Both the position numbers and the translations under genes were made by a program. Source: an uncultured Candidatus Binatia bacterium (GTDB lineage Bacteria; Desulfobacterota; Binatia; Bin18). Taken from it: a stretch of 64,000 nt of DNA. A model generated the notes under the pieces. The model was given only the letters and a program-made list of their open reading frames with translations, was not told the origin of the DNA and did no database searches. The stretch spans positions 862,912 through 926,911 of the forward strand of contig OZ243961.1 of NCBI GenBank assembly GCA_965214605.1, written 5' to 3'. This document shows, piece by piece, positions 6,834 through 61,648 of this stretch (within the stretch, counting starts at the first letter, position 1; each line of letters starts with the position of its first letter).

Positions 6834-6983
6834 AACTGGGGTCCTCTCATCTCGTTGGTCGTTTGAGCATAGCAAACACGGCGGGCGATGTCCCGGTCCG
6901 TCCAAGCGTTGAGTTCTGCCGGGCGTCTCGTTATGTAGAGAGCGCTCAGGATTCCAAGATTCTGTTGTATCAGGGAGGACGTC

Positions 6984-8165: not shown

Positions 8166-8231
8166 CAGTCCTGAAAGACCGGTTCCGTTCGGTCTGACCC
8201 TGGAACGACAACGCCCGAAGGAGAAGCCCGC

Positions 8232-9188: not shown

Positions 9189-9416
9189 GCCTTCACAAAA
9201 ATATGGAGAGCGGCCGAGAGGGTGTAGATGACGACAAGAACAGCATTCCTGTCTCGCCCGCCAATACTGACAGCGTGCTCCTGCCTCTGGTCTTGCCGAT
9301 CACTTAGCCGATATCACTGCCCAAACCGCGGGTATCACGATCAAAGCCCACCGTCATGATTGTCCCGGCATACGCATTGGCTTGCGAGAGGAGCCACCAG
9401 CAGGCACCATAGGGGC

Positions 9417-16014: not shown

Positions 16015-16917
16015 ATGGCCATGCAGGTTAAACTCGAAAGCCGGGAATTTGAAGTCCGAGCCGTGTCGCCGTTCCTGGAAATGGGGGCCTACGAGGCCTT
16101 GTGGTCCCATCCTGACACCACCTTCAAGTCGTTGTCGGAGCGATTTGCGCGGTGTCTCGGCAGCGTGTCGTCAGATTTCGTCCCCCGCGAGCAGGCGTAT
16201 GCCTGCGCGGCTTTCGTGAAACGGCGGTTTGCTGAAGCCGGGGTGAAGCGGTTCGGGGTGCGGGTACACGGCGCGGGTGAATACCCCGACCAGTTGCGGG
16301 ATGCCGTGCATCCGGTGGAACTGCTCTATTACCAGGGTTGGTGGGACTTGGCGGCGTCGCGCTCGGTCGCCGTCGTGGGTAGCCGGAAGCCGTCAGCCGA
16401 GGGGTTGGCGCGCACGCGGCGTTTGGTGCGGGCGTTAGTGGCGGACGACTTCACCATTGTGTCGGGACTGGCGGCGGGGATCGACCGCATGGCTCATGAG
16501 ACCGCCATGGCGGAAAACGGGCGGACGATCGCGGTCATCGGTACGCCGCTTTCGCATGCCTATCCGAAGGCGAATCGTGAGCTGCAGCGGCTTATCGCGG
16601 AGCGTTTCCTGGTCATCAGCCAAGTGCCTTTGAAACGCTATGAGTCGCAGGATTACCGCCGGAATCGGCTGTTCTTCCCCGAGCGTAACGCCACCATGTC
16701 GGCATTGACCGAGGCGACCCTCATTGTGGAGTCGGGCGAGGCCTCGGGAACGCTGATTCAGGCTCGTGCAGCTCTGGCTCAGGGCCGCAAGCTGCTGCTG
16801 GACAACTGCTTCCGCAATCCGCACTTGACTTGGCCGGCCCGGTTTGCCAAGCGAGGCGCCCTTCGGGTCAAGACCTGGGATGACATCCGCAAGCACCTTT
16901 CCGCAGCGCCTCGCTGA
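16015..16917 (+). CDS. DprA/Smf-like Rossmann (SLOG) protein; ShosA-like
   Basis: VAVVGSRKPSAEG...IVSGLAAGIDRMAHETA...TIAVIGTPL...ERNATMSAL...LIVESGEASGTLIQA is the DNA_processg_A pattern. Confidence 0.8.
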   Translation: MAMQVKLESREFEVRAVSPFLEMGAYEALWSHPDTTFKSLSERFARCLGSVSSDFVPREQAYACAAFVKRRFAEAGVKRFGVRVHGAGEYPDQLRDAVHPVELLYYQGWWDLAASRSVAVVGSRKPSAEGLARTRRLVRALVADDFTIVSGLAAGIDRMAHETAMAENGRTIAVIGTPLSHAYPKANRELQRLIAERFLVISQVPLKRYESQDYRRNRLFFPERNATMSALTEATLIVESGEASGTLIQARAALAQGRKLLLDNCFRNPHLTWPARFAKRGALRVKTWDDIRKHLSAAPR

Positions 16918-17607: not shown

Positions 17608-17735
17608 TTGTCGACGATCAGATGAATATCCAGCGGCGTCTCCCGGTCGATTTGCTTCAGGAAGCGCAGCCCTTCGACATGGGTATGCCCGGCCTCGATG
17701 CGGCCGATGAGCTTGCCTGGGTTGGCGAGGAGTAG
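17522..17735 (-). mobile_element. IS630-family transposase fragment
   Basis: Reverse translation reads ...LIGRIEAGHTHVEGLRFLKQIDRETPLDIHLIVDNYCTHKHATVKTWLETPPRFHVPFTPTS, the conserved DDE C-terminal block of IS630. About 70 aa are clear. Weaker remnants may extend towards 18.05 kb. Confidence 0.6.
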
Positions 17736-18310
17736 GAAGACATTGATGTCCGGGTCCTATAGATAAGGATCAGGTTCTGGTCCACCCATATAGCAAGCTG
17801 TAGAGTTTATCGTCTGCGGGATCTGTCTGAGCACTGCCGGCCGGGAACCGAATGGCGACGCACCGACCGCGGTTACCGCCTGGCCTCTCATCACAGCATT
17901 TGATTCACCGACCTCGTCTTCTGGATCCGAAAGCGTGCGGTCTGGGTCTTCCTCTGCAAGAGTCTATACGATATGAGGTCCGATTGAGCCGTACCAATTG
18001 GACAGCTTGTGCTGCGAGGGGTTGCAAAGCGGCTCCAGGATCAGGCACGATGCCCTGCCGGGTTTCACGTCAGGGGAAACACAAGAGGGCTAAAGACCGA
18101 CGGCTCTCGGGCGGCGAGATTGCGTCCTGTAGTGCAGGGTCAAGCGAGCTTCCGTATACAAATGGATCAACCGCAAGCAGCTGGTCGGGAGCTGTGGAAA
18201 TCCAGAAAAGAAGAGATCGATCAATGGCTTCGAATGGGATGGGGACGGGACAAATGACCGCCGATGCGGTGTCGCCGCTCATGAGGATACCTGGAGGATA
18301 AGAGGTCGCA

Positions 18311-21300
18311 ATGAAGCTGGCAGACCTCCAGGTCAATGCCGCCGTGCGCGGCATTCTCTCGGACGAACTCGTCACGGTGGTCGGCGTGCAGTGGTTTGGA
18401 GCCGAGGCTCTGGAGCTGACCTACAAAACGCCGACTGGAAAAGTCGCCAATGAGCTGCTCTATCGGCACGACGAGCCCCGGCTCGAAATCGTTGAGGTCG
18501 GTCGGCCCTGGAGTTTTGACGGAGACGGGGCGCTGTTCCGTCTCGTCTCCGAAGCCCAGCGCATTCGTCTCGCCCACCTTTTCGACCCGGTGCTCGCGGT
18601 CCATACCTCCGTTGTCGAACCGCTCCCACACCAGATCACCGCCGTCTACGAATCGATGCTGCCACGCCAGCCGCTGCGCTTCCTGCTCGCGGACGACCCC
18701 GGCGCCGGCAAGACCATCATGGCCGGGCTGCTCATCAAGGAACTGATTGCCCGCGGCGACCTGCAAGGCTGCCTGGTGGTGTGTCCCGGCAGCCTTGCCG
18801 AGCAGTGGCAGGACGAGCTCTATCGCCGTTTCCAGCTGCCGTTCGAGATCTTGACCACCGACAAGCTTGAGGCGGCCCGCACCGGCAACTGGTTCCTCGA
18901 AACGCCTCTGGTGATTGCCCGCCTCGACAAGCTCGCCCGCAACGACGACGTCCAGCAAAAGCTCCAGGCTCCGGATTGTCGGTGGGACCTCGTCGTGTGC
19001 GACGAGGCGCACAAGATGTCGGCCACCTTCTTCGGCGGCGAGGTCAGGTATACCAAGCGCTACCGGCTCGGGCAGCTGCTGTCTTCGCTGACCCGGCACT
19101 TCCTCCTTATGACCGCGACCCCGCATAACGGCAAAGAGGCCGACTTCCAACTTTTCATGGCGCTGCTGGACGGCGACCGCTTCGAGGGGCGCTTCCGGGA
19201 CGGCGTGCATGTGGCCGATGTCTCGGACCTGATGCGCCGCATGGTCAAGGAGACCCTGCTCAGATTCGACGGCACGCCGCTGTTTCCGGAGCGGATCGCG
19301 CACACAGTTCCCTACAAACTCTCGGAAGCAGAGGCCCGTCTCTATAAATCGGTTACCGACTACGTGCGCGAGGAGTTCAATCGTGCCGAGGCGCTTGAGA
19401 ACGACAAACGGGCCGGCACCGTCGGATTCGCATTGACCATCCTGCAACGCCGCCTGGCGTCTTCTCCGGAAGCCATCTCCCAATCGTTGCGGCGACGGCG
19501 GGAACGCCTGGAAAGCCGGCTGCGCGAGCTCCAAGTGCTGCAGCGGGGTGGTCAGGCGACGCTCGCCGCGACCACGGGCCCGGAGCTGGACCCGGAGGAC
19601 GTTGAGGATCTCGACGAAGCACCGGACACCGAGGTCGAGGCCGCTGAGGAGGAAATTCTTGACCAGGCCACCGCCGCGCGCTCAATCGCGGAGCTCAAGG
19701 CGGAAATTGGAACACTGAAATCCCTGGAAGGCCTAGCGGTCGGCGTCAGACACAGCGGGGCCGACACGAAGTGGCGTGAGCTCGCGAGCCTACTCGGAGA
19801 GATCTTCACCGCGGGCGGGCTAGCCGGCCGGATTGCCGAACCCGACACGCCTTACGGCGCGGGAGAGATACCCAAGCCCAAATCGTCGCCCAGGCAGAAG
19901 CTCGTCATCTTCACCGAGTATCGCGACACGCTTAGCTATCTTCAGGACCGCATCACGACAGTCCTCGGGTGCCCGGAGTCCGTCGTCGTGATCCACGGCG
20001 GCCTGGGACGGGAAGACCGGCTCAAGGCCCAGGAGGCATTCCGGCACGATCCCAAGGTGCAGGTGCTGCTCGCTACCGACGCCGCCGGCGAAGGCATCAA
20101 CCTCCAGCGCGCCCATCTGATGGCGAACTATGACCTGCCTTGGAACCCGAACCGGCTGGAGCAACGCTTCGGTCGTATTCATCGCATCGGCCAGACTGAG
20201 GTCTGCCATCTCTGGAACCTGGTAGCGGACGAAACACGGGAAGGCGATGTCTACCGCAAACTGTTGGAGAAGCTTGAGCAGGCCCGTCGGTCGCTGGGCG
20301 GTCGAGTGTTCGACGTGCTCGGCAAGCTCCACTTCGAGGGCCGGCCACTGCGCGACCTGCTGGTAGAAGCGATCCGCTACGGGGAGCAGCCCGCAGTGCG
20401 AGCGCGTCTGACCACGGCTGTTGATCACGCCCTGGACCGAGTACACCTCCAGGACCTCCTTGAGGAGCGTGCCCTGGCTCATGATGTGATGGACGCAAGC
20501 CGCGTGCATCGCATCCGGGAGGACATGGAGCGAGCGGAGGCGCGTCGCCTCCAGCCTCACTACATCGAATCATTCTTCCGCGAGGCGTTCCAGCGGCTCG
20601 GTGGTTCGGCCAGACAGCGTGAGTCCCGGCGCTACGAGATCACCCACGTGCCGGCGCCCGTCAGAAACCGGGACCGGCTCATTGGTATCGGGGAGCCGGT
20701 ACTGCCGCGCTACGAACGTATCGCCTTCGAGAAGTCTCTCGTGGCGCCGCAAGGGCAGCCACTCGCGGCTTTCGTCTGCCCAGGCCATCCGTTGTTGGAC
20801 GCCGTTATCGACCTGACACTCGAACGCCATCGGGACCTGCTAAAGCGTGGCGCCGTTCTGGTAGATGAAAGAGACCTGGGCACAAAGCCCCGGGTGCTCT
20901 TCTCCCTTGAGCATGTCCTCCAGGATGCCAGCGTCACCCGCTCGGGCGATCGGCGCATTATCTCCAAGCGCATGCTTTACGTCGAGCTCGATGAGGACGG
21001 GGTGACCCGCCACGTCCACTATGCGCCCTATCTGGATTACCGTGCTCTCGCCGATGGGGATCCAGACCTCGATTCGCTTCTTGATTGCCCTCAATGTGCC
21101 TGGCTTGAGCGCGACATGGAGTTGCGGGCGCAAGCCTACGCGGTTGCCAATGTCGTGCCGGAGCATCTCAAAGAGGCCCGGGATGCCAAACTGGCGCTTA
21201 TCGCGAAGACGGAGGCCGCCGTCAAAGACCGGCTCACCAAGGAAATCACGTACTGGGATCATCGGGCCGAGCAGTTGAAGCTCCAAGAGCAGGCCGGCAA

Positions 21301-21886
21301 GACCGGCGCTCGGCTCAACTCCGGCGAAGCGCGCAAGCGCGCAGACAACCTCGAGGCGAGACTTCAGAAGCGCTTGGGAGAGTTGAAGCTTGAAGCGCAG
21401 ATTTCGCCCTTACCGCCAGTGGTGTTGGGAGGCGTGCTCGTGGTGCCCCAAGGCCTGCTGCACGAATTGAAAGGGAGCGAGTCGGTCCCCACCACTGTAT
21501 CGGTAGACACGCAGGCGTCGGCGGCCCGTGCACGCGAGATCGTCATGGCGGTGGAGCGAGAGCTTGGCTTCGAGCCGACCGACCGGGAGTTCGAGAAGCT
21601 GGGCTACGACATCGAGAGCCGCGTCCCCGGCACCGGTCGACTCCGGTTCATCGAAGTCAAGGGACGCGTCAGCGGCGCACCCACGATTACGGTTACCCGT
21701 AACGAGATTCTCTACTCCCTCAACAAACCCGAGGACTACATCCTCGGCATCGTGGAGTTTCTTGATGGGGGCGAGCATCGGGTTCACTATGTCCGGGAGC
21801 CGTTCCAACGGGAGCCGGACTTCGGGGTGACGAGCGTGAACTACGATTTTGCAGAGCTGCTCGCGCGAGCCCGGCAGCCTTCGTGA
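18311..21886 (+). CDS. SNF2/DEAD-like superfamily 2 helicase with C-terminal DUF3883-type nuclease-like domain
   Basis: Helicase motifs LADDPGAGKT (I), VVCDEAHK (II), MTATPHNG (III) and QRFGRIHRIGQ (VI). C-terminus has RFIEVKGR...ITVTRNEI...YILGIVEF (DUF3883-like). Confidence 0.9.
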   Translation: MKLADLQVNAAVRGILSDELVTVVGVQWFGAEALELTYKTPTGKVANELLYRHDEPRLEIVEVGRPWSFDGDGALFRLVSEAQRIRLAHLFDPVLAVHTSVVEPLPHQITAVYESMLPRQPLRFLLADDPGAGKTIMAGLLIKELIARGDLQGCLVVCPGSLAEQWQDELYRRFQLPFEILTTDKLEAARTGNWFLETPLVIARLDKLARNDDVQQKLQAPDCRWDLVVCDEAHKMSATFFGGEVRYTKRYRLGQLLSSLTRHFLLMTATPHNGKEADFQLFMALLDGDRFEGRFRDGVHVADVSDLMRRMVKETLLRFDGTPLFPERIAHTVPYKLSEAEARLYKSVTDYVREEFNRAEALENDKRAGTVGFALTILQRRLASSPEAISQSLRRRRERLESRLRELQVLQRGGQATLAATTGPELDPEDVEDLDEAPDTEVEAAEEEILDQATAARSIAELKAEIGTLKSLEGLAVGVRHSGADTKWRELASLLGEIFTAGGLAGRIAEPDTPYGAGEIPKPKSSPRQKLVIFTEYRDTLSYLQDRITTVLGCPESVVVIHGGLGREDRLKAQEAFRHDPKVQVLLATDAAGEGINLQRAHLMANYDLPWNPNRLEQRFGRIHRIGQTEVCHLWNLVADETREGDVYRKLLEKLEQARRSLGGRVFDVLGKLHFEGRPLRDLLVEAIRYGEQPAVRARLTTAVDHALDRVHLQDLLEERALAHDVMDASRVHRIREDMERAEARRLQPHYIESFFREAFQRLGGSARQRESRRYEITHVPAPVRNRDRLIGIGEPVLPRYERIAFEKSLVAPQGQPLAAFVCPGHPLLDAVIDLTLERHRDLLKRGAVLVDERDLGTKPRVLFSLEHVLQDASVTRSGDRRIISKRMLYVELDEDGVTRHVHYAPYLDYRALADGDPDLDSLLDCPQCAWLERDMELRAQAYAVANVVPEHLKEARDAKLALIAKTEAAVKDRLTKEITYWDHRAEQLKLQEQAGKTGARLNSGEARKRADNLEARLQKRLGELKLEAQISPLPPVVLGGVLVVPQGLLHELKGSESVPTTVSVDTQASAARAREIVMAVERELGFEPTDREFEKLGYDIESRVPGTGRLRFIEVKGRVSGAPTITVTRNEILYSLNKPEDYILGIVEFLDGGEHRVHYVREPFQREPDFGVTSVNYDFAELLARARQPS

Positions 21887-21910
21887 CAGGGTGATTTGGA
21901 TCCCCGAGCA

Positions 21911-24900
21911 ATGCAATCGAACAAGAAGCTGATCGAAGTCACCCTGCCGCTTGATGCGATCAACAAGGCGGCGGCCCGAGAGAAGTCGATCAGGCATGGC
22001 CATCCCAGTACGCTGCACCTGTGGTGGGCGCGCCGGCCTTTGGCGGCGGCCCGGGCGGTACTCTTCGCGCAGCTGGTTGATGACCCCTCTGCCTATGTGG
22101 AGGAGCTGCTCTCAGAGCCAAAGAAGAAACAGGCGGCAGAACAGGAATTGCAGAAACGGCTGGACGAGCATACGGCGAAGCAGGCCCTCGCCGATACGGA
22201 CGCAATTCCCGAGCCGGCGCCGACGCTTAAGGAGGTCATCGCAGAGAGCGAGCGTGCTCGTCTGTTCGGCTTCCTGGAAGAGTTGGTCCTGTGGGAGAAT
22301 ACGACCAATACCTCGGTCCTGGAGAAGGCGCGCGGCGAGATCCAGCACAGCTGGCGGCGCGCCTGCGCGCGCAATGCCGACCATCCCAGGGCCAAAGAGT
22401 TATTTGATCGTACCAGGTTGCCCGCCTTTCACGACCCCTTTGCCGGTGGCGGGGCGCTGCCGCTCGAAGCCCAGCGGCTTGGCCTTGAGGCCCACGCCAG
22501 TGACCTGAACCCGGTGGCGGTGCTGATCACCAAGGCGCTGATCGAGTTCCCGCCGAAGTTCGCCGGTAGGCCGCCGGTCAGCCCGGCGGCGCGCAGGGAC
22601 GAGGAGCTGTTGTCCCGGCAGTGGCGGGGCGCGCAGGGGCTGGCCGAGGATGTGCGCGCCTACGGCGAGTGGATACGCGAAGAGGCGGAGCGGCGTATCG
22701 GGCCTCTCTATCCGAAGGCCGCCGTCACCGCCGAGATGGCGCATGAACGGCCTGATTTGCAAGCGTATGTGGGAGGCAACCTCACCGTGATCGCCTGGCT
22801 CTGGGTGCGCACGGTCAGGAGCCCGAACCCGGCTTTTGCGGCCGTGGAAGTCCCGCTAGCCTCAACCTTCATGCTGTCGACCAAGAAGGGTAAGGAAGCC
22901 TATGTCGAGCCGGTGATCGAGGCTGGCGGGTACCGGTTCATCGTAAAGGTGGGGAAGCCACCTGATGCCGCCGCGGCGAAGTTAGGAACGACAGCCGGCA
23001 AGCGCCATGCTTTTAAGTGCCTGCTGTCAGATGTTCCGGTCACATATGCTCACATCCGAAGCGAGGGTCAGGCCGGGCGCATGCGCACCCGCCTGATGGC
23101 GATGGTGGCCGAGGGCGACCGTGGCCGAGTTTACCTCTCACCGACGCCGGAACACGAGGCGGCAACACGCAAAGCGAGGCCCGAATGGAGGCCGGAGACG
23201 CCGCTGCCCGAGAATCCGCGCAATTTCAATACGCCGCATTACGGCCTCGCCACCTACGGCGCCCTCTTCACCGCCCGTCAACTCGTTACGCTCACGACCC
23301 TCTCAGACCTGGTAGGCGAAGCGATAACGCGGGTCCGCCAGCACGCCGTCGCAGCAGGCGTGCCTGATGACGAGGTGCCGCTGCGCGACGGGGGAACGGG
23401 GGCGACCGCGTATGCCGAGGCGGTCGCCCTGTATTTGGCGCTAGCGGTCGATCGCTTCAGCGATCGCTCTTCAACTATCTGCAGTTGGGATAACGGACGC
23501 ACGACAATACGGAACACATTTGGTCGTCAGGCCCTTCCAATGACGTGGGACTACGCGGAAACGAATCCGTTTTCTGAATCTACCGGCAGTTTCAGCGGTC
23601 AGCTCGAATGGGTAGCAAAGTCCTTGGGGACTGCTCCGGCACTTCCAGCAGGGTTCAGTGCACAGCTGGACGCTTGTACCCAGACCATGAGCGCGGACAA
23701 ATGCATCTCCACCGACCCTCCCTATTACGACAACATTGGCTACGCGGACCTCTCGGACTTCTTCTACGTCTGGCTGCGTCGTTCACTACGCACCGTCTTA
23801 CCTGAGCTCTTTGCTACGCTTGCGACCCCCAAGGCGGAAGAGCTTGTCGCCACCCCGTACCGCCACGAGACCAAGGAGAAGGCGGAGGCTTTTTTTCTGG
23901 AGGGGATGACCCAGGCCATGTACCGTGTGGCCGAGCAGGCACATCCGGATTTCCCGGTCACCATCTATTACGCCTTCAAGCAGTCGGAGAAAAAAGGCGA
24001 GGAAGGCACGGCGTCAACCGGCTGGGAAACTTTCCTGGAGGCCGTGCTCCACGCCGGCTTTGGCATCAGCGGCACCTGGTCGATGCGCACCGAGCTGGGG
24101 AACCGGCCAGTCGGCTTGGGCACGAATGCCCTTGCGTCCAGCATCGTCCTCGTCTGCCGTAAGCGCGACCCGAACGCTGCGAACGCCAGCCGTCGGGAGT
24201 TCGTGACCGCTCTGAAGCGGGAACTGCCCAGGGCCCTTATCCACCTGCAGCGCGGCAACATCGCGCCGGTGGACCTCGCCCAAGCGGCCATCGGCCCCGG
24301 CATGGCGGTCTACACGCGCTATGCGAAGGTGCTCAATATTGAGGGGCAACAGCTTTCGGTCCGCGAGGCCCTGGCGCTCATCAACCAGACACTGGACGAG
24401 ACACTCGCTGCGCAGGAGGGGGATTTTGAGGCGGACAGCCGCTGGGCGCTGGCCTGGTTCGAGCAGGAGGGCTTCAAGGAGGGCGCATACGGGCTCGCGG
24501 AAACCCTCTCCAAAGCCAAGAACACCAGTGTCGGAGGCCTGGTGGAGGCCGGCCTCCTCGCCTCGCAAGGCGGGAAGGTACGTTTGCTCAGGCCCGCCGA
24601 GCTGCCCGAGAGCTGGGACCCGGCGACCGATCCGCGCCTGACCGTCTGGGAGATGGTCCATCATTTCATCCGTGTCCTTGAAGCAGGCGGTGAGAGTGCT
24701 GCTGCCGAGCTCGCCCGCAAGCTCGGCGCCAAAGCCGAGGCGGCGCGGGAACTCTGCTACCGGCTCTACACCTTGTGCGAACGCAAGCACCGCGCGACCG
24801 AGGCTTTATCCTATAACGGTTTGGTGCAGAGCTGGCCCGAAATCATGCGGCTCTCTCGCGAAGAAAGCCAGGCGGAGGCTGAGCAATCGTCCCTGTTTGA

Positions 24901-24916
24901 GACCGGGGAGCGCTGA
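21911..24916 (+). CDS. DUF1156-type DNA methyltransferase (DPPY motif)
   Basis: N-terminus LIEVTLPLDAINKAAAREKSIRHGHPSTLHLWWARRP (DUF1156), SAM motif DPFAGGGA and catalytic motif STDPPYYDNIGYADLSDFFYVW. The track start TTG at 21896 is also possible. Confidence 0.9.
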   Translation: MQSNKKLIEVTLPLDAINKAAAREKSIRHGHPSTLHLWWARRPLAAARAVLFAQLVDDPSAYVEELLSEPKKKQAAEQELQKRLDEHTAKQALADTDAIPEPAPTLKEVIAESERARLFGFLEELVLWENTTNTSVLEKARGEIQHSWRRACARNADHPRAKELFDRTRLPAFHDPFAGGGALPLEAQRLGLEAHASDLNPVAVLITKALIEFPPKFAGRPPVSPAARRDEELLSRQWRGAQGLAEDVRAYGEWIREEAERRIGPLYPKAAVTAEMAHERPDLQAYVGGNLTVIAWLWVRTVRSPNPAFAAVEVPLASTFMLSTKKGKEAYVEPVIEAGGYRFIVKVGKPPDAAAAKLGTTAGKRHAFKCLLSDVPVTYAHIRSEGQAGRMRTRLMAMVAEGDRGRVYLSPTPEHEAATRKARPEWRPETPLPENPRNFNTPHYGLATYGALFTARQLVTLTTLSDLVGEAITRVRQHAVAAGVPDDEVPLRDGGTGATAYAEAVALYLALAVDRFSDRSSTICSWDNGRTTIRNTFGRQALPMTWDYAETNPFSESTGSFSGQLEWVAKSLGTAPALPAGFSAQLDACTQTMSADKCISTDPPYYDNIGYADLSDFFYVWLRRSLRTVLPELFATLATPKAEELVATPYRHETKEKAEAFFLEGMTQAMYRVAEQAHPDFPVTIYYAFKQSEKKGEEGTASTGWETFLEAVLHAGFGISGTWSMRTELGNRPVGLGTNALASSIVLVCRKRDPNAANASRREFVTALKRELPRALIHLQRGNIAPVDLAQAAIGPGMAVYTRYAKVLNIEGQQLSVREALALINQTLDETLAAQEGDFEADSRWALAWFEQEGFKEGAYGLAETLSKAKNTSVGGLVEAGLLASQGGKVRLLRPAELPESWDPATDPRLTVWEMVHHFIRVLEAGGESAAAELARKLGAKAEAARELCYRLYTLCERKHRATEALSYNGLVQSWPEIMRLSREESQAEAEQSSLFETGER

Positions 24917-24930
24917 AGATACCGGACCAT

Positions 24931-25281
24931 GTGGACACCATTGGCGCCGAGAGATGGGCACACCGGGTACGGGTTGGTCCATATGTCGTTGAAGACGCAA
25001 TGGCTCCGGCGGAGACGGAGCTCACTCAGCGCAGAGAGCACATTGAGCCATGGCTCTCTGCGCTGCTGCAGGCGGAGCATCTGAACCTGCCGGTAGGCAG
25101 CGGACTGACAGCCGCAATTGCGGAGCCCCTAGGCGCCCCAGTAGTGGATATGGCTCCGGTAGGGCCCGGCCACGAGTACGAAGAACTCGTGCTTTCCGCC
25201 GCCGAGTGCCGCGCGGAAATCAGTGGGCGCGGGAAGACGAACGTAGAGGACATGATTCGGGCGACCGGGGAGTTGATGTAG
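24931..25281 (+). pseudogene. short ORF resembling the N-terminus of a SIR2-like (ThsA-type) protein; probable fragment
   Basis: LLQAEHLNLPVGSGLTAAIAEPLG resembles the nLnfLiGSGaS NAD-binding start of SIR2_2 proteins. The ORF stops after 116 aa and is followed by about 0.8 kb of stop-rich sequence. Confidence 0.3.
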
Positions 25282-26077
25282 GATCCCACAGTTTTGTATG
25301 GATTCGGTGACGATCACATCAATCGGATACTGCGGAATATGTTGACCCTTCCTTCGACGCACCCGGCAATCATCTCCTTCAATGAGGCACGGAAGAATCC
25401 CGAGGTTCTGCAGCGGCGCTGGTCGTGACGAGCAGATAACGCTATCCGTCGGTCCACACTTTGGCTACTTACCAACCCTGGTAAACCATGATCTACCGAA
25501 GCCTTCGATAGATCATACGACTTGGCGAATGGTCAAATTCCTCAACAAACGGACTCCGAGAGTCACGACGGTGACCTTGTGAGGAGCCATTCGCATGGCC
25601 TGGCTAGTCGAGCGTCTTGGTGATCGCGCCGTGGGTGGTTGTCGAGAGCGTCAGTACGAGCTCCATTAGCGTGGACAGTCCGGCAACGCCACAAGCTACC
25701 ACACTGCATACTGGCACCCCGACTGGCTTTCCAAGAAACAATGGCTATATTACTTGCTCGTGTCGAATGAATCAGGGGCGACGGTCGGTTCCATCACGTC
25801 CGTACGGGTAGAAAGGTTGCCATATCCAAAGCGAAAAGGCATGCAGGGCCTCTGCTCAGCTGGGGCGCGCCGGCTCCGCTTCTTGTTGAAGTACACGAAC
25901 TTCCCGCTCCAGAAAGACCTTACTCTCGAGACCCGGCGTTTTGGGCCGTTTGGACAGGATCGCAAGAATACAAGATCGCCTGGCAGTGGGTGTCTGGGCC
26001 CTCGACGTCGCCGCCCCTTGCCGAGACCGAGGGCCGGAATGAACCGAGCGGTGCTCACGAGCCCGTAGGAGCAACGT

Positions 26078-29000
26078 ATGGCAACATCAAATCACGAACG
26101 CGTAGGGAAAGCGCTCGACCTCCTGAAAGCCGGACTAGGACCTTTTGTTGAGCGCGAGGTCAAGAGCGCGCTGAAGTCTCGGCGCCTCGCCGCTCACAGA
26201 CTGCGGGACTACGCCGAAGATCGGGTTCTAGCGAACAAGCCGCTATTGGAATGGGATGCCGCTGGCTTGTTGAAGCTCATGGGGGAAACGTGGAACGACG
26301 TCTTTCGCGAGATTCTTGGACCTGGGGAAAGAGGCTTTGTCGGTGAGCTTCGTGGATATCGAAACAGATGGGCACACCAGGAAAGCTTTACGAGCGACGA
26401 TGCCTACCGGGCGCTTGATTCCGTCGAACGGTTGTTGGCCGCGGTGTCAGCCCCGCAGTCGGGGGACCTCGAGCGTCTCAAAATGGAACTGCTCCGGGTC
26501 CGGTTCGACGAGCAGGCGCGCGGCGAACGCCGCAAGCGGGCGGGAACCGCGATCGAGAGCGCCGCCGCCACAAATCTGAAGCCCTGGCGGGAGATCGTCA
26601 CACCGCACAGGGATGTGGCAAGCGGGCGATACCAGCAGGCCGAATTCGCTGCTGACCTGTGGCAGGTGCATCTTGGCGAAGGGCCGGACGAGTATCGCGA
26701 GCCGGTTGAGTTTTTCCGACGCACCTACCTGACTGAAAGCTTGAAGGGGCTTCTGGTCGGCGCTCTTCATCGTCTCACCGGCAAGGGCGGCGATCCGGTC
26801 GTCCAGCTGCAAACCAACTTTGGGGGCGGCAAAACGCACTCAATGTTGGCGCTCTACCATCTGTTCTCCGGTACAAATCCTACCGAGCTTTCCGGTATTG
26901 AGACCGTCATGCGGGAGGCGGAAGCCACGCAACTGCCCACAGTGCGTCGCGTCGTGCTGGTCGGTAACAAGATCTCTCCGGGCAATCCGGCGACCAAGGA
27001 CGACGGCACAGTGGTCCGTACGCTCTGGGGTGAACTGGCCTGGCAACTGGGCGGGAAGAAGGCCTACGCATCCATTGCCGCGGACGATGAGAAGGCCACA
27101 AGTCCCGGCGACACACTGCGGGAGCTGTTCAAGGAATACGGCCCTTGCCTCATCCTCGTCGACGAGTGGGTTGCCTATGCGCGCCAGCTTCACGACCGGA
27201 GCGATCTGCCCGCTGGCGGATTCGAAACACAGTTTAGCTTCGCCCAGGCACTGACCGAGTCTGCCAAGCTCGCCGGCAACTGCCTGCTGGTGGTCAGTTT
27301 GCCGGCTTCCGACACCGCTGGGTCGCCGCATACCCAGGCCGATGATGTGGAAGTCGGAGGACAACGCGGGCGGGAAGCACTCGACCGTTTACGGAACGTC
27401 GTAGGTCGCATTGAGTCCTCCTGGCGCCCGGCGAGTGCCGAGGAAGGCTTCGAAATCGTACGTCGTCGCCTGTTTGAGCCGCTCTCGGATCCAGCGCAGT
27501 TCAGGGACCGAGACGTGGTCGCGCGGGCGTTCGTAGAGCTCTACCGCACGGAGCATCGGGAGTTCCCGCCTGAATGCCGGGACAGTGACTACGAGAAGCG
27601 CATCAAGGCTGCGTACCCGATCCATCCGGAAATCTTCGATCGGCTCTACACCGACTGGTCAACATTGGTGAAGTTCCAGCGAACGCGCGGGGTGCTGCGC
27701 CTGATGGCAGCCGTCATCCATAGCCTTTGGGAGAAGGAAGATCGGAATCCGCTGATCTTACCGGCGAACATCGCGATCGACGCTCCCCGCGTGCAGTTCG
27801 AGCTGACCAGATACCTTCCGGATACCTGGGTGCCCGTGATCGCGAAGGATGTTGACGGCCCGAGTTCTCTTCCGCTGCGCATCGACGGTGAAGTTCCGAA
27901 TCTCGGAAAGTCCGCCGCGTGCCGACGCGTTGCGCGCAGCATTTACCTTGGGTCGGCCCCCACAGCGGATGCGGCGCACCGGGGACTCGAAGATCGGCGG
28001 GTGAAACTGGGGTGCGTGATGCCGGGCGAATCTTCTGCGGTCTTCGACGATGCGCTCCGTCGCCTGGCCGGCGCTGCGACGTACCTCTACCAGGATGAGT
28101 CGCGGTACTGGTACTCCACGCAGCCAACCGTGACGAAGCTCGCTGAGGATCGCGCTGAGCAGCTGAAGCGCCACCCCGACAAGGTGGTGCAGGAACTTCA
28201 GGCGAGGCTCCGGGCCGACCTGGGCGAGCGGGGCGACTTCAGCCGCGTTCACCCCTTGCCTCAATCCGGACAGGACGTGCCGGACCACCTCGATGCACGC
28301 CTGATCGTGCTCGGCATCGACCATCCCTATAGCAGGGAGAAAGGCAACCCCGCCGAAGTTGCTGCGAAGAAGATCCTGGAGAACTGTGGGAATACACCTC
28401 GACTTTTCCGCAACACGCTTGTGTTTCTGGCCGCCGACAAGACACGGCTTCAGGACCTGGACGAAGCGGCGCGCCGCTACCTGGCGTGGGAGTCGATCCT
28501 CGCCGAGCGTGAGCAGCTCGACTTGTCTCCGCACCAGGTGAAGCAGGCTGCGATGCAGAAGGACACGGCATTGAGCATGGTGACCACGCGAGTCCCTGAG
28601 ACGTACCAGTGGCTGCTCGCCCCTATTCAGGAAAACCCGCAGGCCTCCATAGAGTGGCAGGCCCTGCGCCTATCGGGTCAAGACGCCTTGGCGGTACGGG
28701 CCAGCAAGAAGCTTCGAAGCGACGAACTGTTAGTGACAGGGTTTGCCCCGACCCGTCTGCGGATGGAACTTGACGGCGTACCTTTATGGCGCGGAGATTA
28801 CGTATCCACCAAACAGGTTGTCGAGGATTTTGCCAAGTATCTCTATCTGCCCCGCAGCAGCGAGCCACAGGTGCTGCTGAACGCGATAGAAGACGGCGTC
28901 GCTTTGCTGACCTGGGAACGGGAGACGTTCGCGTTCGCGGACAGCTATGACGAAGAGGCAGGCCGCTACCGCGGGTTGCGTGGTGGACAGGCTGTCAGGC

Positions 29001-29434
29001 TTCCCGATGCTGACGCGTCTGGAGTGCTGGTGAAGCCAGACGTCGCGCGTCGGCAGATTGATGCAGAAACCAAGAAGCCGACGGCAGGCGAGGAAGGCAT
29101 TCCAGGGGGGGATACGACAAAACAAGGGGCCGATGTTGATAGCGGCGGAGGAGAAACAGGCGCGGGCGGGGAAACGCCGTCTCCACCGAAAGCAGCGCAG
29201 CACAAGCGCTTTCACGGCACGGTGCAGCTGGATGTCACGCGCGTCGGGCGTGACGCGAGCCGCGTTGCCGAGGAGGTCATCTCGCACCTGGCGGGCTTAG
29301 TAGGAGCAAAAGTCACGGTCACCCTCGAGATCGAAGCCGAGTTCCCTTCGGGTGCATCGGACCATGTTGTCCGGACCGTCACCGAGAATGGTCGGACGCT
29401 GAGATTTGCGAGCCAGGGGTTCGAAAAGGAATAA
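26078..29434 (+). CDS. DUF499-type P-loop ATPase
   Basis: 1118 aa. Walker A NFGGGKTHSMLALYHLF and Walker B CLILVDEWVAY. The long C-terminal region has a low-complexity G/E/T linker. Typical DUF499 architecture, usually next to DUF1156 methylases. Confidence 0.85.
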   Translation: MATSNHERVGKALDLLKAGLGPFVEREVKSALKSRRLAAHRLRDYAEDRVLANKPLLEWDAAGLLKLMGETWNDVFREILGPGERGFVGELRGYRNRWAHQESFTSDDAYRALDSVERLLAAVSAPQSGDLERLKMELLRVRFDEQARGERRKRAGTAIESAAATNLKPWREIVTPHRDVASGRYQQAEFAADLWQVHLGEGPDEYREPVEFFRRTYLTESLKGLLVGALHRLTGKGGDPVVQLQTNFGGGKTHSMLALYHLFSGTNPTELSGIETVMREAEATQLPTVRRVVLVGNKISPGNPATKDDGTVVRTLWGELAWQLGGKKAYASIAADDEKATSPGDTLRELFKEYGPCLILVDEWVAYARQLHDRSDLPAGGFETQFSFAQALTESAKLAGNCLLVVSLPASDTAGSPHTQADDVEVGGQRGREALDRLRNVVGRIESSWRPASAEEGFEIVRRRLFEPLSDPAQFRDRDVVARAFVELYRTEHREFPPECRDSDYEKRIKAAYPIHPEIFDRLYTDWSTLVKFQRTRGVLRLMAAVIHSLWEKEDRNPLILPANIAIDAPRVQFELTRYLPDTWVPVIAKDVDGPSSLPLRIDGEVPNLGKSAACRRVARSIYLGSAPTADAAHRGLEDRRVKLGCVMPGESSAVFDDALRRLAGAATYLYQDESRYWYSTQPTVTKLAEDRAEQLKRHPDKVVQELQARLRADLGERGDFSRVHPLPQSGQDVPDHLDARLIVLGIDHPYSREKGNPAEVAAKKILENCGNTPRLFRNTLVFLAADKTRLQDLDEAARRYLAWESILAEREQLDLSPHQVKQAAMQKDTALSMVTTRVPETYQWLLAPIQENPQASIEWQALRLSGQDALAVRASKKLRSDELLVTGFAPTRLRMELDGVPLWRGDYVSTKQVVEDFAKYLYLPRSSEPQVLLNAIEDGVALLTWERETFAFADSYDEEAGRYRGLRGGQAVRLPDADASGVLVKPDVARRQIDAETKKPTAGEEGIPGGDTTKQGADVDSGGGETGAGGETPSPPKAAQHKRFHGTVQLDVTRVGRDASRVAEEVISHLAGLVGAKVTVTLEIEAEFPSGASDHVVRTVTENGRTLRFASQGFEKE

Positions 29435-31618: not shown

Positions 31619-34600
31619 CTAGTTGCAGAGACTCGAGAGCTCTTCTTTCGTAAGAACACGCACGCCACAATTGGCTGCGACGCCAGCGAAGTACATTGGA
31701 ACGACTTCGCTAAACACGAACAGCCCCTCTAGTGATGGCGACGCTTGCTCACCAACGAAACACGCGACCGCCGCGCGGTGCTCGTTCAACAATTTGAGCC
31801 GCACAAGGTGCTTTTTCATTCGATCGGGCTTTCCGTGAACGTTGAGTTCTCCGCGAAAATCGTGCAGCTGGCGAGCAATCTCGGCCATTGTCATTGCCAG
31901 CTCCAAGTCCTTGCACTCTATCGCGAGCACGCGACCCGCCTTCCAGGCAAGGACATCGACATCTCCGTAGTCCTGATCAAGCTTGCGGTTGAGAATCTCG
32001 GTTAGCTTGATCTCCAGTCGGGTCTTCCAACCGAGCTTTTCGAGGTGGGCAGCAACTTCCTTATTAAATTCCTGTCCGCGCCTGTTTTCGGCCGCGCCGA
32101 TCCAGGAGCGCATCCGTCCCGGAGGAAAGTCCTTCGCCTCGTAACCTCCCGTGTAGCAATAGTCCAAGACCTTTCGTATGCCTGCGCGGACCAACCCGGG
32201 CGCAACTAGATAGCGCGGGGATGGATCGTCGAGCCGCACGATAGGTCTGCTAATGAGGGCCAGACGACGCCGAAAGCGCCATGGATACCAGTCTTTGGGC
32301 CGGAATCCATTCGGCGTGGAAGCCCACGTGGAGCGCGGTGAAAGAGAAAAGGCTTTAAGTATCTTTCTAACTACCACTTCATCGAGCGGCTTAGAGCCAT
32401 CGAGAGCAAATATTTCCGTTTCGGTTGTCGAGAAGACCAACTCCTGACGTTTGATCCCCTCATCTTCCAGATTGTCCATGAAGATATGCACGTCATCAAT
32501 GGTAAAGCAGAAAGCTTCTGTCCAAGCCTCACAGAACTCAGGGTCCGGTTCTCCGCGCGCAGCGCCGACTAGCTCTACATCGCGAAAGTGTTGCTCGTAG
32601 GTGTTCGCGCCATGCCGATATCGGATGACACCGAGAGTCTGTCCGTAAGGAGTGACAATGGTCTCATCGAAGTCAACGTCCGTGTGCACATCGCCGAAAG
32701 GAGTGATTCTGATCTCTGGTGCCTTGCTCTGGTATCGGATTGCCTCAGACCATCCGCCAAAGCTGTGCATCTGCATGACCTCTGCGAGGAGTCGGGAGAT
32801 GTCAAGCCGGCCCGGGTGTATCCCGGCATCTTTCGGGCATTCGCACAAAGCCATCTCGACAAGAATTCGCGTGCTAAGCGACGCTGCGTTAAGCCGGGCG
32901 ATCTCTTTCGAAGCCTCCCTCTCGGCGGCCTCCTTGTCATGATGTAAGGAAAGGGCAGCACGCGCGGTCCTGAGCCAGCGGCCGGCCTCGATTTCGACGG
33001 CTTCGTGATTCCGTAGTAGGGCGAACAATAAATGCTCGCGGTTATACTCTTTCAGCTTCGACTGGAGCTCGGTCCAAATGCTGTCAACGAGGCTGTTGAG
33101 GTACTGACAGCAAGGTTCGATTCCCTCTATACGGGGTCCTTCGTCCAGCTTTCTTGACCGCCATCCAAGCCCAATCCGCGATAGCGCGTCATCAATCTTG
33201 GAGATCACAATCGGTTTGCCCCGCGCTTTGCGGGCAACGAAATTCCGAAATTCTCGGGCGGAGAATAGATGCATGTCGCGGGCCCACTGGTCCGGGACGA
33301 TCTGCTGGACGAGGGAATTAAATATCTCGGGCGAATGGTCTTCGCTGGACAATCGGCAGGTGCCTGACACGAATGCTTCGACGAGCAAGCTTTCGGCCAT
33401 GTTCTCGGGTACGCGAAACGAGGCTAGGAAACCGTCGTGAGCTGTGACACGTACAACGTGATCGTCGACGTTGATTTCAAGTAGTGCTTTGGCCTGAGCG
33501 CGCAAGGGAATTGGTATTGCTTGGTCTGTAGGATCCCTATCTTCGAACCGACATATCCATGCAATAGGACCTTCTGGCAATGACCGAATCTTCTCCTCGA
33601 TAACCCTTGCTGAGCGTTCGAGCCAGGTAGCGAGGGCGTGCCACAGTGGGAAATGAAGATCGCGATCCGTCGAGTTTGGTATTTCCACTGTGATCCACCA
33701 ACCGCGTGAGTTGGTTTCGCACACTGCCACGAGCCGTTGCTGGTCGAGGTCGTCGAGACTGACGTAGAGCGGAGCGTTCTCATCTTCTTCGAAAAATGAG
33801 CTCTCATCCAATCGTCGAACTCTGACGGTTCGCTTGTCCCACGTCCGTGCGCGGTGGATATCGCTGCTCTTAGCGCCTTTCTTGCGGACTTCGAGCAGAC
33901 TGTTCGGTTTAACAACGATCATGGACGGCTTGCCAGCTAAGTCGTCCGGCAGCTGGCCGTGAGGGATGAGATGACCTTCGAGTGATTCGGACCAGGCATA
34001 GAGGTTCAGTAGGCCGTTGACATTCATGAGACGAACGCCGATCTGGGCAAGGCGGGCCTGCATATCAAGCAAGCTCCAGAGGTTCAACGGAGAAAAGCTC
34101 GATGCCCAACTCATTGAAATTAGGTCCGGCGCCGAAACTGACTCGACCCGCCAGCGTCGGTCCTCAACGCTTTCGAACTCACACATCATCGGCCGACCCC
34201 AGGGACATAGGACGATCAACGACAATCCCGCGCGAAAGCGTGGCTTGGAAGAGTAAGCCTGCTGTATTTGAGCGATGCTAGTCTTTATCGCTCTACTGAA
34301 GCGACTAGGGTCAGGATTTAGGCCAACCACTCCAGTCAGATCGTAGTGAACGAAACTGTCGACGACAAAACAAATATGTAGCAATCGGCCTTCGTCGACC
34401 CAATCGGCTGCATTGGCGAAGAACACGCCGCCCAGCTTCTGGAATGGCAGCGGTGGCGCGAGGTCACCGCCGAGGAGAGGAACATTTCTGAAGGTCTCTG
34501 CGAATTCGTTCACGTAAACCCGATAGAGTTGCTCTTCGTATCCATTAGATAGGCAGAATTCAATGACCATCCGGCGAACCGCCATTGAGACGGCCGCTGG

Positions 34601-35401
34601 AAGCGTAAGGTAGAGATCACCGCCAATCGCGAGAAGCGGACGCCGCTCGAGCGAGGAATGGCCGTAGCTCTCACGACGCAATCGATCACGATCCTGTCTG
34701 TCCAGGATAAACGTCTCAATGTCTTCGCGTGCGATGCCCAGGCGGGCTAAATCGTTCTCGCGAAAAACAACGCGTTCTTTTGCTATCCCTCCCCGACGGA
34801 CGAGACTCTTGGCCACGCTGCGAATAGGTTTCGTGTCGCCCACAGCGAACGCTGGGATTCCGGAACGTTTGATGGTTTCATCAGACAGTGTGAGAAGAGC
34901 GTACGCCGCACGCCTAAGGCCAGCAAACGGCTCCTGGGACGGCATATTGTCTAGCACATTGATGAAGCATTGTAGATAGAACGCCGAGCTTTCGTACAGC
35001 CCCTGGAATATCAGGAAGTCCCGATTGCTGGTGGACACGCGCGACACGAAGACATCCTCTGCGGGGTCTTCCATTTGGCCAGCCCAACCTTCTCCAAGTG
35101 TTTCGAGCCAAGACGTCAGCGAGCATGTGAGCGGCGTTAGCTCGCCGCGCGCGTTCGCGACGGCGAGATGTTGAAGAAGCTCGAGGCGAACCGCACTTGC
35201 CTGAAACTCAGGCATAGTGAACAGGCCAGCGATAAAAGAGGTGAGCGACGATAGCTTGTACTTCCTTAATGAGCGCGCCAGCTTTCGATGCGCTTTAAAG
35301 AGACGCGAATACGTGGAGCTGGCCAACGGGTCTTCTTCTGGGTGGTACAGACTTTCGATGTGTTTGGTCACAGCTCCCAGTATCAGCTTTAGGCGGTACA
35401 A
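31619..35401 (-). CDS. large hypothetical protein (about 1250-1260 aa) with C-terminal PD-(D/E)xK nuclease-like motif
   Basis: Uninterrupted 3.78 kb ORF. The C-terminus FNKEVAAHLEKLGWKT...DYGDVDVLAWKAGRVLAIECKDLE fits a restriction-endonuclease-like D...ExK core. No GxxxxGK[ST] anywhere. Start uncertain: TTG at 35401 or GTG 30 nt downstream. Confidence 0.8.
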   Translation of the reverse strand: MYRLKLILGAVTKHIESLYHPEEDPLASSTYSRLFKAHRKLARSLRKYKLSSLTSFIAGLFTMPEFQASAVRLELLQHLAVANARGELTPLTCSLTSWLETLGEGWAGQMEDPAEDVFVSRVSTSNRDFLIFQGLYESSAFYLQCFINVLDNMPSQEPFAGLRRAAYALLTLSDETIKRSGIPAFAVGDTKPIRSVAKSLVRRGGIAKERVVFRENDLARLGIAREDIETFILDRQDRDRLRRESYGHSSLERRPLLAIGGDLYLTLPAAVSMAVRRMVIEFCLSNGYEEQLYRVYVNEFAETFRNVPLLGGDLAPPLPFQKLGGVFFANAADWVDEGRLLHICFVVDSFVHYDLTGVVGLNPDPSRFSRAIKTSIAQIQQAYSSKPRFRAGLSLIVLCPWGRPMMCEFESVEDRRWRVESVSAPDLISMSWASSFSPLNLWSLLDMQARLAQIGVRLMNVNGLLNLYAWSESLEGHLIPHGQLPDDLAGKPSMIVVKPNSLLEVRKKGAKSSDIHRARTWDKRTVRVRRLDESSFFEEDENAPLYVSLDDLDQQRLVAVCETNSRGWWITVEIPNSTDRDLHFPLWHALATWLERSARVIEEKIRSLPEGPIAWICRFEDRDPTDQAIPIPLRAQAKALLEINVDDHVVRVTAHDGFLASFRVPENMAESLLVEAFVSGTCRLSSEDHSPEIFNSLVQQIVPDQWARDMHLFSAREFRNFVARKARGKPIVISKIDDALSRIGLGWRSRKLDEGPRIEGIEPCCQYLNSLVDSIWTELQSKLKEYNREHLLFALLRNHEAVEIEAGRWLRTARAALSLHHDKEAAEREASKEIARLNAASLSTRILVEMALCECPKDAGIHPGRLDISRLLAEVMQMHSFGGWSEAIRYQSKAPEIRITPFGDVHTDVDFDETIVTPYGQTLGVIRYRHGANTYEQHFRDVELVGAARGEPDPEFCEAWTEAFCFTIDDVHIFMDNLEDEGIKRQELVFSTTETEIFALDGSKPLDEVVVRKILKAFSLSPRSTWASTPNGFRPKDWYPWRFRRRLALISRPIVRLDDPSPRYLVAPGLVRAGIRKVLDYCYTGGYEAKDFPPGRMRSWIGAAENRRGQEFNKEVAAHLEKLGWKTRLEIKLTEILNRKLDQDYGDVDVLAWKAGRVLAIECKDLELAMTMAEIARQLHDFRGELNVHGKPDRMKKHLVRLKLLNEHRAAVACFVGEQASPSLEGLFVFSEVVPMYFAGVAANCGVRVLTKEELSSLCN

Positions 35402-57526: not shown

Positions 57527-57576
57527 GATGCCGTCCTCATCTTGTTGCTGTATTTTCCGACAGAATCACCTTCGTC

Positions 57577-59982: not shown

Positions 59983-59985
59983 TCC

Positions 59986-61632: not shown

Positions 61633-61648
61633 AGAAGCATCCTTAATT

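Follow-up and report, generated by a model that had tools for sequence, protein, structure and literature searches.

The Hma system was defined by Payne et al. 2021 (PMC8565338). Its helicase-nickase, HmaA, has been tested experimentally in the version of Halomonas meridiana: on its own, this protein makes E. coli resistant to T4, and its motif VI and nuclease residues are required (Liu et al. 2024, PMC11232893). In the same study, overexpression of HmaB left the sensitivity to T4 unchanged, and 15-20% of the HmaA loci were without hmaB or hmaC. Insertions were counted in 66.5% of the hma loci, described as a "defence gene insertion hotspot".

The same system has been treated as the HEPN-fused Type-1 form of the DUF499-centred BREX-related (BR) systems, which are restriction-modification-like and for which a mechanism has been proposed (NAR 2026, PMC12839542). 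The authors of that paper report the HEPN-fused ATPase from 1370 of 2446 taxa, attribute the fusion of HEPN and DUF499 to work by Aravind and colleagues (2013), and argue for deep homology with type 3 BREX in the ATPase, the methyltransferase and the Snf2 helicase. The initial annotation of the present locus called this gene trio poorly understood. This holds to the extent that only HmaA, from Halomonas, has been shown experimentally, but it is too strong for a system in which HmaA was tested (PMC11232893) and the family was dissected comparatively (PMC12839542).

The locus described here is very probably a canonical Hma anti-phage system, with a dead SIR2-HerA passenger in the junction between hmaB and hmaC; its activity is predicted from the sequence. 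The system type, the HEPN fusion, the breadth across phyla and the hosting of defence genes are all already published, and the value of the locus is mainly that of a clean annotated example, with a canonical Hma operon on which purifying selection is strong.

Organization of the hma operon

The window, i.e., the whole stretch of 64,000 nucleotides that was analysed, contains hmaA, hmaB and hmaC in this order, all on the + strand and within 11.1 kb, which is the single co-directional locus that PADLOC asks of Hma. hmaA (18311-21886) encodes 1191 aa from an ATG start. hmaB (21896-24916) encodes 1006 aa from a TTG at 21896; an alternative ATG at 21911 is the likelier start and gives 1001 aa, matching the length called in a relative (L005). 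hmaC (26078-29434) encodes 1118 aa from an ATG start. The three large co-directional ORFs reported at first (1191, about 1000 and 1118 aa) are real, full length and without internal stops.

hmaA and hmaB are spaced by 9-24 nt, and hmaB and hmaC by 1161 nt (24917-26077). The genes had been presented as a triad: they do lie on the same strand in one locus, but hmaB and hmaC are not contiguous. Spacers of relatives reach 9.2 kb, and the 1.16 kb of this locus fall within their range. This gap is identical in contigs from two independent runs, X1 (2024) and X5 (2019), the runs containing the hma locus being metagenomes.

The same gene order was found at 80 loci in genomes of many phyla and, also, on plasmids of cultured bacteria. 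Cultured carriers of close homologues include Burkholderia sp. PAMC 26561 (plasmid NZ_CP014311.1, with a HmaC 73% identical), Meiothermus taiwanensis WR-220 and Thermus oshimai JL-2. Cargo is present in 44 of 49 relatives' hmaA-hmaB junctions and in 33 of 73 hmaB-hmaC junctions, so that the published insertion of passengers in hma operons is reproduced here. A second, compact Hma operon is located ~630 kb away in the same genome. As the two systems are diverged, two separate methylation motifs are predicted.

A 149-aa ORF just upstream of hmaA (17852-18301) was treated as non-coding: it is of low complexity, rich in Arg, Pro and Ser, and without a Pfam match. Nor does it resemble the WYL fragment that precedes the other Hma operon of the genome; relatives show no conservation of that fragment ahead of their hmaA. 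Scans for promoters and terminators gave results at chance level, and no tRNA genes were found within the window. A search for RNA-seq data yielded no run identifiable as RNA, just runs of unspecified type belonging to one study.

The three Hma proteins

HmaA matches its PADLOC profile (PDLC00659) end to end, with 1688.4 bits and E = 0 (residues 1-1190 on profile positions 2-1172 of 1176). In Pfam, a SNF2-rel_dom/ResIII domain (~103-359) is followed by Helicase_C (525-627) and by NOV_C at residues 1073-1160 (nt 21527-21790, E 5.9e-18). NOV_C is the Pfam name of the former DUF3883. The helicase motifs are GAGKT at 131-135, DEAH at 231-234, TAT at 268 and QRFGRIHRIGQ from 618, and the tail holds a PD-(D/E)xK-type set composed of D1100, E1115-V-K1117 and E1132. 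By motif only, their counterparts in the HmaA of Halomonas are R610, D1084, E1104, K1106 and E1121. On this footing, the residues essential for defence in Liu 2024, i.e., the motif VI arginine and the D/E/K/E set of PD-(D/E)xK, are present here. The NOV_C domain (1073-1160) is predicted to be the active PD-(D/E)xK REase that characterizes the Type-1 BR helicase. Among solved structures, a PDB sequence search with HmaA matched only RapA and other Snf2 proteins.

HmaB was matched over its full length and with E = 0 by PDLC00660 (1511 bits) and PDLC00661 (1415 bits). The DUF1156 head typical of Type-1 BR methyltransferases is found at residues 17-82 (Pfam, E 7e-28). Numbered from the TTG start, DPFAGGGA is at 180 and DPPY at 607; between these motifs I and IV, residues ~351-600 are variable in the conservation profile. 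HmaB is a predicted DNA methyltransferase of the N6-adenine type, so that methylation and a target motif are expected rather than observed. No solved relative was found for HmaB, or for HmaC, in the PDB sequence search.

The last protein, HmaC, starts with a HEPN_Swt1 domain (PF18731) at residues 11-124 (nt 26108-26449, E 8e-32), followed by DUF499 (PF04465, E 1.4e-28). Its match with PDLC00662 reaches 1172.5 bits and E = 0 (residues 166-1116 on profile positions 2-940 of 941). RNRWAH, an Rx4H motif, occupies residues 95-100, the P-loop GGGKT is at 249-253 and Walker B (LILVDE) at 358-363. HmaC is a Swt1-type HEPN RNase domain fused to a STAND/ORC-like DUF499 ATPase (~166-1116), the HEPN-fused ATPase of Type-1 BR. 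HmaC has 8000 or more relatives, and both domains are present in 120 of the 120 best ones (79-88% identical); members of the family normally have this fusion. The C-terminal ~70 residues are well conserved in this clade, with an identity of 0.75-0.78 to the window protein. In RefSeq, homologues are named "Swt1 family HEPN domain-containing protein".

The profiles of HmaA, HmaB and HmaC, matched full length with E = 0 when the proposed PADLOC check was run, bear out the assignment to Hma. Every catalytic motif named earlier for the helicase, the methyltransferase and the ATPase could be read directly from the sequence. The statement that no nuclease exists besides the DUF3883 tail, on the contrary, overlooked the HEPN RNase domain on HmaC.

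Compared with relatives, dN/dS is 0.04-0.07 for HmaA, 0.15-0.18 for HmaB and 0.06-0.10 for HmaC. These values, 0.04-0.18 overall, indicate strong purifying selection, in the sense of a long-term constraint and not as proof of present-day function. The module had been called well preserved and under selection, and the values of hmaA and hmaC (0.04-0.10) and of hmaB (0.15-0.18) agree with this.

The SIR2-HerA relic

The interval between hmaB and hmaC, whose content had escaped the initial annotation, begins with the relic of a SIR2_2-family gene (24934-25561, + strand), mapped by BLASTP and tblastn. It starts 18 nt past the hmaB stop. Intact relatives count ~455-460 aa, of which residues ~5-130 and 352-440 survive, i.e., ~215 of ~459 codons. 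About 220 codons are lost internally, an in-frame TAG is present at 25279-25281 and a frameshift near 25390. A HMMER search with the gap, reading through the TAG, gave 276 matches at E <= 0.001 among 1.84 billion proteins, and the full-length ones carry Pfam SIR2_2.

The second relic is of a HerA-type ATPase (25595-26070, + strand) and ends at the hmaC start. Residues 1-83 (25595-25846) and 638-710 (25852-26070) are retained in different frames; ~156 of 716 codons are left and ~555 are deleted. The corresponding tblastn matches of the HerA protein of an intact relative, L097, have E-values of 5e-13 and 3e-19, and tblastx agrees. In L097, both genes are intact: the first (5932-7299, 455 aa) is PADLOC SIR2 (E 2e-166) and the second (7296-9446, 716 aa) is PADLOC HerA (E 8e-253), with Pfam DUF87 in addition. 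The relics align in order and orientation with this adjacent pair (L097:5932-9446).

The SIR2-HerA defence system is said to go back to Gao et al. 2020. The relic resembles it in gene order and orientation and differs in its stop, its frameshifts and the loss of most codons. Since SIR2 and HerA are both broken here, 24934-26070 is, judged by these lesions, a non-functional pseudogene pair of a SIR2-HerA cassette and not a working member of the system. An intact hmaB-SIR2-HerA adjacency was seen in the metagenome contigs L095 and L098. Pfam gave no match on six-frame pieces of 24917-26077, even at E <= 1, and it took the exhaustive HMMER search to recognize what the gap contains. When the gap was compared by blastx and blastn with cargo ORFs from the 80 related genome loci, nothing matched, and the SIR2-HerA pair occurs in none of these 80. 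Of the ~1400-aa sacsin-type cargo of relatives, no remnant was found in the window.

The relic may reduce or uncouple the transcription of hmaC. If it were a polar block, with hmaC poorly expressed or silent, the operon would be only partly functional, and any activity left would be that of HmaA, alone or together with HmaB. A non-coding relic of 1161 nt between the two genes fits this reading, as does the fact that HmaA alone suffices against T4 in E. coli, with ~19% of HmaA loci lacking hmaC (PMC11232893). Moreover, in a genome of the same genus (G004), hmaC is fragmented and has an internal stop. In the window, however, hmaC is intact over 1118 codons with all its motifs and is strongly constrained, and between a third and a half of the related loci have retained hmaC despite kilobases of cargo at the same junction. 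A polar block is unlikely, and the locus is better read as a complete Hma operon with a dead passenger.

Proposed mechanism and comparison with known systems

In the proposed mechanism, largely drawn from the literature on the family, HmaB (DUF1156 and DPPY, with a variable target-recognition insert) would mark a specific motif of the host DNA. HmaC, as an ATPase of the ORC/STAND type that carries wHTH domains and, at its C-terminus, an RRM-like domain, would assemble the complex and sense nucleic acid that is unmodified or invading. The DNA effector would be HmaA, in which a Snf2 translocase is combined with a PD-(D/E)xK nickase tail; for this step, there is experimental proof from the homologue of Halomonas. 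The HEPN domain of HmaC would be a further effector, directed against RNA, and may serve as an abortive arm of last resort. The SIR2-HerA pair was probably an independent passenger and was wrecked later, each of its genes by an internal deletion, while purifying selection kept the three hma genes. This assignment of roles to HmaA, HmaB and HmaC is tentative, given the lack of effect of HmaB overexpression on T4 and the 15-20% of HmaA loci without hmaB or hmaC. The HmaB target and the HmaC/HEPN trigger are no more tractable at this locus than in cultured carriers.

As the SIR2-HerA passenger is caught decaying, cargo appears to turn over while the carrier persists. It is a rather doubtful proposition that both hma junctions are dedicated docking sites, where whole defence systems are exchanged that share their transcription with Hma and depend on it in function. 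SIR2-HerA, for example, could then be a back-up arm that depletes NAD once the Hma sensor sets it off. If true, the window would capture an arm discarded by two clean internal deletions, with the Hma frame and the exact junctions kept.

That the locus is instead a true type 3 BREX, a DISARM, or a DUF3780/PLD-helicase relative (Type-2 BR, the NCBIfam "anti-phage-associated DUF499/DUF1156" set) is very improbable. HmaA has secondary matches with DrmD (381 bits) and BrxHII (312 bits) among the best 25 of its 54 PADLOC matches, HmaB and HmaC match NF042963 and NF042962 weakly, and the deep homology with type 3 BREX argued in PMC12839542 points the same way. However, DrmD scores 369 for a curated cut-off of 610, far under the HmaA score. 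Similarly, NF042963 (DUF1156_antiphage) reaches 108 for a cut-off of 1000, NF042962 (DUF499_antiphage) 177 for 1200 and NF042964 157 for 1100. PglZ (PF08665) had no match in the whole genome, while two of 14 control genomes were positive. The helicase carries NOV_C and, according to Pfam, no PLD domain; a genome-wide search for DUF3780 had no match, nor had its control. In type 3 BREX (BrxC, a BrxXI/PglX-type methyltransferase and BrxHII), the likeness is in the BrxHII profiles matched by HmaA. The ATPase there is BrxC/DUF6079, in place of DUF499 here, and the nuclease on the helicase and the HEPN on the ATPase are additions of this locus.

[quoted passage not shown] The suggested overlap with the core of MADS is not supported. 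The MADS papers describe an eight-gene operon, mad1-mad8, of Pseudomonas aeruginosa SMC4386, with kinase, specificity subunit, methylase and OLD-like modules, and the words helicase, DUF499 and DUF1156 are absent from the preprint. Both gene set and families differ.

In comparison with Type-1 BR of the HEPN-fused form, the ATPase, N6-methyltransferase and helicase, the DUF1156 head, the C-terminal PD-(D/E)xK and the N-terminal HEPN are all alike. The HmaC C-terminus is hypervariable across the whole family according to PMC12839542 and conserved in this clade; otherwise, nothing substantive differs. The Hma passengers listed in Liu 2024 (PMC11232893) are Septu, PARIS, Ppl, AAA_21 pairs and GmrSD-like genes, whereas here it is SIR2-HerA, dead and of a type unlisted there. 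The host also differs from Halomonas meridiana: it appears to be of an uncultured lineage, with a GuaB 83% identical to Candidatus Binatia MAG proteins. In comparison with the Hma of Halomonas meridiana, the profiles are alike end to end, as are the gene order and the presence of passengers inside the operon; HmaA counts 1191 aa in both, and motif I, motif VI and the PD-(D/E)xK residues are common to the two proteins.

Gene products and family assignment

Three large co-directional ORFs, reported in the initial annotation, are present on the + strand and encode HmaA (18311-21886, 1191 aa), HmaB (21896-24916, 1006 aa from a TTG start) and HmaC (26078-29434, 1118 aa). The ATG at 21911, which yields an HmaB of 1001 aa, is probably the true start, as the homologue in the related locus L005 was called at the same length. 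Every catalytic motif claimed for helicase, methyltransferase and ATPase was found: GAGKT (131-135), DEAH (231-234), TAT (268) and QRFGRIHRIGQ (from 618) in HmaA, DPFAGGGA (180) and DPPY (607) in HmaB (TTG numbering), and the P-loop GGGKT (249-253) and Walker B LILVDE (358-363) in HmaC. The NOV_C tail of HmaA displays a PD-(D/E)xK-type set consisting of D1100, E1115-V-K1117 and E1132.

The identification as Hma was right. In the PADLOC check proposed with it, the HmaA, HmaB and HmaC profiles were matched end to end: HmaA at 1688 bits (residues 1-1190 on profile 2-1172 of 1176), HmaB at 1511 and 1415 bits against two profiles, and HmaC at 1172 bits (residues 166-1116 on profile 2-940 of 941). 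The Pfam architecture is SNF2/ResIII, Helicase_C and NOV_C for HmaA, DUF1156 for HmaB and DUF499 for HmaC. The initial annotation saw no nuclease beyond the DUF3883 tail of the helicase, thereby overlooking an N-terminal Swt1-like HEPN domain in HmaC (residues 11-124, E 8e-32), whose residues 95-100 form the Rx4H motif RNRWAH.

Related systems fit less well. The NCBIfam DUF1156, DUF499 and PLD-helicase anti-phage models of the DUF3780-containing relative match only far below their cut-offs, as does the DrmD model of DISARM. BREX proper is ruled out, a domain search with working positive controls having found no PglZ domain in the whole host genome. The locus is therefore assigned to Hma rather than to any of these three, and by its sequence it is a textbook Hma, or Type-1 BR, system.

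Other genes were noted in the window. A 300-aa DprA-like protein (16015-16917, +; Pfam DNA_processg_A, E 6e-53) is encoded 1.4 kb upstream of hmaA; between the two (17608-18310), only a low-complexity 149-aa ORF without homologues in Pfam was found. Downstream are a 1260-aa gene (31619-35401, -; PADLOC Upx, E 1e-261; NCBIfam Upx_antiphage 987 bits, under the 1900-bit cut-off), a 715-aa reverse transcriptase matching the PADLOC defence-RT class RT_UG19 (40197-42344, +; E 6e-156) and two defence-island members, a 271-aa AbiEii match (37643-38458, +; E 1e-75) and a 564-aa protein matching PADLOC candidate HEC-05 (44798-46492, +; E 1e-43). Type III-D-like CRISPR-Cas effector genes stand in a row at 56063-63974 (-): Cas7_IIId, an 801-aa Cas7-Cas5/Csx10-like protein, Cas10d, Csx1/CARF-PD-(D/E)xK and a further Cas7/Csm3-like gene.

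The hmaB-hmaC spacer and passenger genes

The initial annotation needs correction on one point: hmaB and hmaC are not adjacent, 1161 nt (24917-26077) separating them. A Pfam search of this gap gave no match. Since frame +1 continues past a single TAG (25279-25281), its 175-aa read-through was used as query against 1.84 billion representative proteins. It retrieved 276 matches at E <= 0.001, the full-length ones being proteins of 360-520 aa with Pfam SIR2_2. Mapping against intact relatives placed three SIR2 pieces: 24934-25317 (residues about 5-130 of about 459), followed by a deletion of about 220 codons, 25297-25389 (residues 352-382) and, after a frameshift, 25391-25561 (residues 384-440). 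Two HerA pieces follow in different frames, 25595-25846 (residues 1-83 of 716) and 25852-26070 (residues 638-710), with about 555 codons deleted between them. The intact gene pair of comparison locus L097 matches PADLOC SIR2 (E 2e-166) and HerA (E 8e-253, also Pfam DUF87). The gap is thus what remains of a ~3.5-kb SIR2-HerA defence pair after the loss of ~2.3 kb. Its ends still adjoin hmaB (18 nt past the stop) and hmaC, and in two metagenome contigs (L095 and L098; HmaB 68-82% identical to that of the window) the intact order is HmaB, directly followed by SIR2 and then HerA. An assembly artefact is ruled out, as contigs from two independent studies (X1, 2024; X5, 2019) cover the relic with zero differences. 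The spacer is a dead SIR2-HerA passenger.

Passengers were surveyed by tblastn of the three window proteins against 80 related loci, an insert being more than 300 nt. Such inserts, reaching 4.9 kb at the hmaA-hmaB junction and 9.2 kb at the hmaB-hmaC junction, occur in 44 of 49 and 33 of 73 loci, respectively. The + strand slot ORFs belong to varied defence and toxin-antitoxin families: AAA_15/AAA_21 ATPases, ~1400-aa sacsin-domain ATPases, GmrSD, YhcG PD-(D/E)xK nucleases, HepT with nucleotidyltransferase pairs, DuOB with DUF488, PIN, Fic, RloB and AbiJ. SIR2-HerA is one further cargo type among many. This agrees with Liu et al. 2024 (PMC11232893), who found genes inserted between hmaA, hmaB and hmaC in 66.5% of hma loci and named this a "defence gene insertion hotspot".

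A ~1400-aa ATPase recurs in the hmaA-hmaB slot of distant hosts (L018, L020, L026, L040, L050, L057, L058); seven slot proteins, not itemised, carry a sacsin domain by Pfam. On a Burkholderia conjugative plasmid, a gene of comparable size (L089, 1563-5804), with no annotation other than 'ATPase', is found upstream of the DUF1156 gene. In L039 (5437-10040) and L066 (10001-14531), the HmaC match spans ~4.5 kb versus the usual 3.35 kb, which suggests an insertion inside hmaC.

Selection, second operon and distribution

Preservation by selection, as initially proposed, is borne out over the long term, with no bearing on present expression: Nei-Gojobori dN/dS against six relatives, with dS near saturation, is 0.04-0.07 for hmaA, 0.06-0.10 for hmaC and 0.15-0.18 for hmaB. 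HmaB is the fast-evolving part of the operon. In related loci it is 42-80% identical to the window protein (mostly 60-80%, with a separate group at 42-46% and a few at 52-56%), flanked by HmaA and HmaC at 63-92%. The low-identity group beside conserved neighbours points to exchange of the methyltransferase module among operons that are alike in other respects. HmaB is least conserved at residues about 51-150 and 351-600 (the latter is the insert between motifs I and IV), as would be expected of a methyltransferase that determines specificity.

A second complete Hma operon, without passenger genes, lies on the same chromosome (G000:C1:252812-262451, i.e., L004 6813-16452). Its HmaA (1202 aa), HmaB (908 aa) and HEPN-containing HmaC share 42-52% identity with the window proteins in the best BLAST segment, or 45-54% in whole-length alignments. 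It is directly preceded by guaB-guaA and a 146-aa WYL fragment and followed by a HipA-like kinase gene. The host seems to belong to an uncultured lineage; its GuaB shares 83% identity with proteins of Candidatus Binatia MAGs. Two Hma loci (L075 and L084) were likewise present in one further MAG of the survey. Two diverged methyltransferases in one genome predict two independent methylation motifs.

HmaC has at least 8000 relatives among 5.8 billion proteins, and all of the best 120 (79-88% identical) combine HEPN_Swt1 with DUF499. The 80 related loci (69-81% identity) represent many lineages, among them Latescibacterota, Acidobacteriota, Planctomycetota, Chlorobiaceae, Chloroflexota, Bacillota, Actinomycetota, many Proteobacteria and one Methanobacterium MAG. 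Plasmids of cultured strains carry homologues, for example the conjugative Burkholderia plasmid (73% identity; RefSeq 'Swt1 family HEPN domain-containing protein'), and the sequencing runs containing the locus are metagenomes. A match occurs in 11 of 30 relatives of the host (12 of 31 with the host included), one copy being fragmented. This distribution, patchy even inside the genus, fits an accessory, horizontally moving system. In a same-genus genome (G004:C4:1085147-1088161), hmaC lies in three pieces, one with an internal TGA, and looks like a decaying copy.

Comparison with described systems

Hma was named by Payne et al. 2021 (PMC8565338) from 1638 three-gene operons in 26 phyla. Halomonas HmaA on its own protects E. 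coli from T4, which requires the motif VI arginine and NOV_C residues D1084, E1104, K1106 and E1121; its isolated tail is a Mn-dependent nickase (Liu et al. 2024, PMC11232893). A 2026 NAR study (PMC12839542), which renamed the family Type-1 DUF499-centred BREX-related systems, detected an ATPase with fused HEPN in 1370 of 2446 taxa and attributed the first sighting of this fusion to a 2013 HEPN survey. In the model proposed there, the methyltransferase labels DNA as self and the ATPase does the scanning and sensing, leaving restriction to the helicase-nuclease and the role of a last-resort suicide RNase to HEPN. From these three studies, the whole finding, including the HEPN domain missed initially, is already described.

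The overlap with the MADS core initially suggested is unsupported. PADLOC-DB does include mad profiles, since mad8 weakly matched a HerA protein; none occurs among the complete PADLOC match lists of HmaB and HmaC. The words helicase, DUF499 and DUF1156 have zero occurrences in the MADS preprint. [quoted passage not shown]
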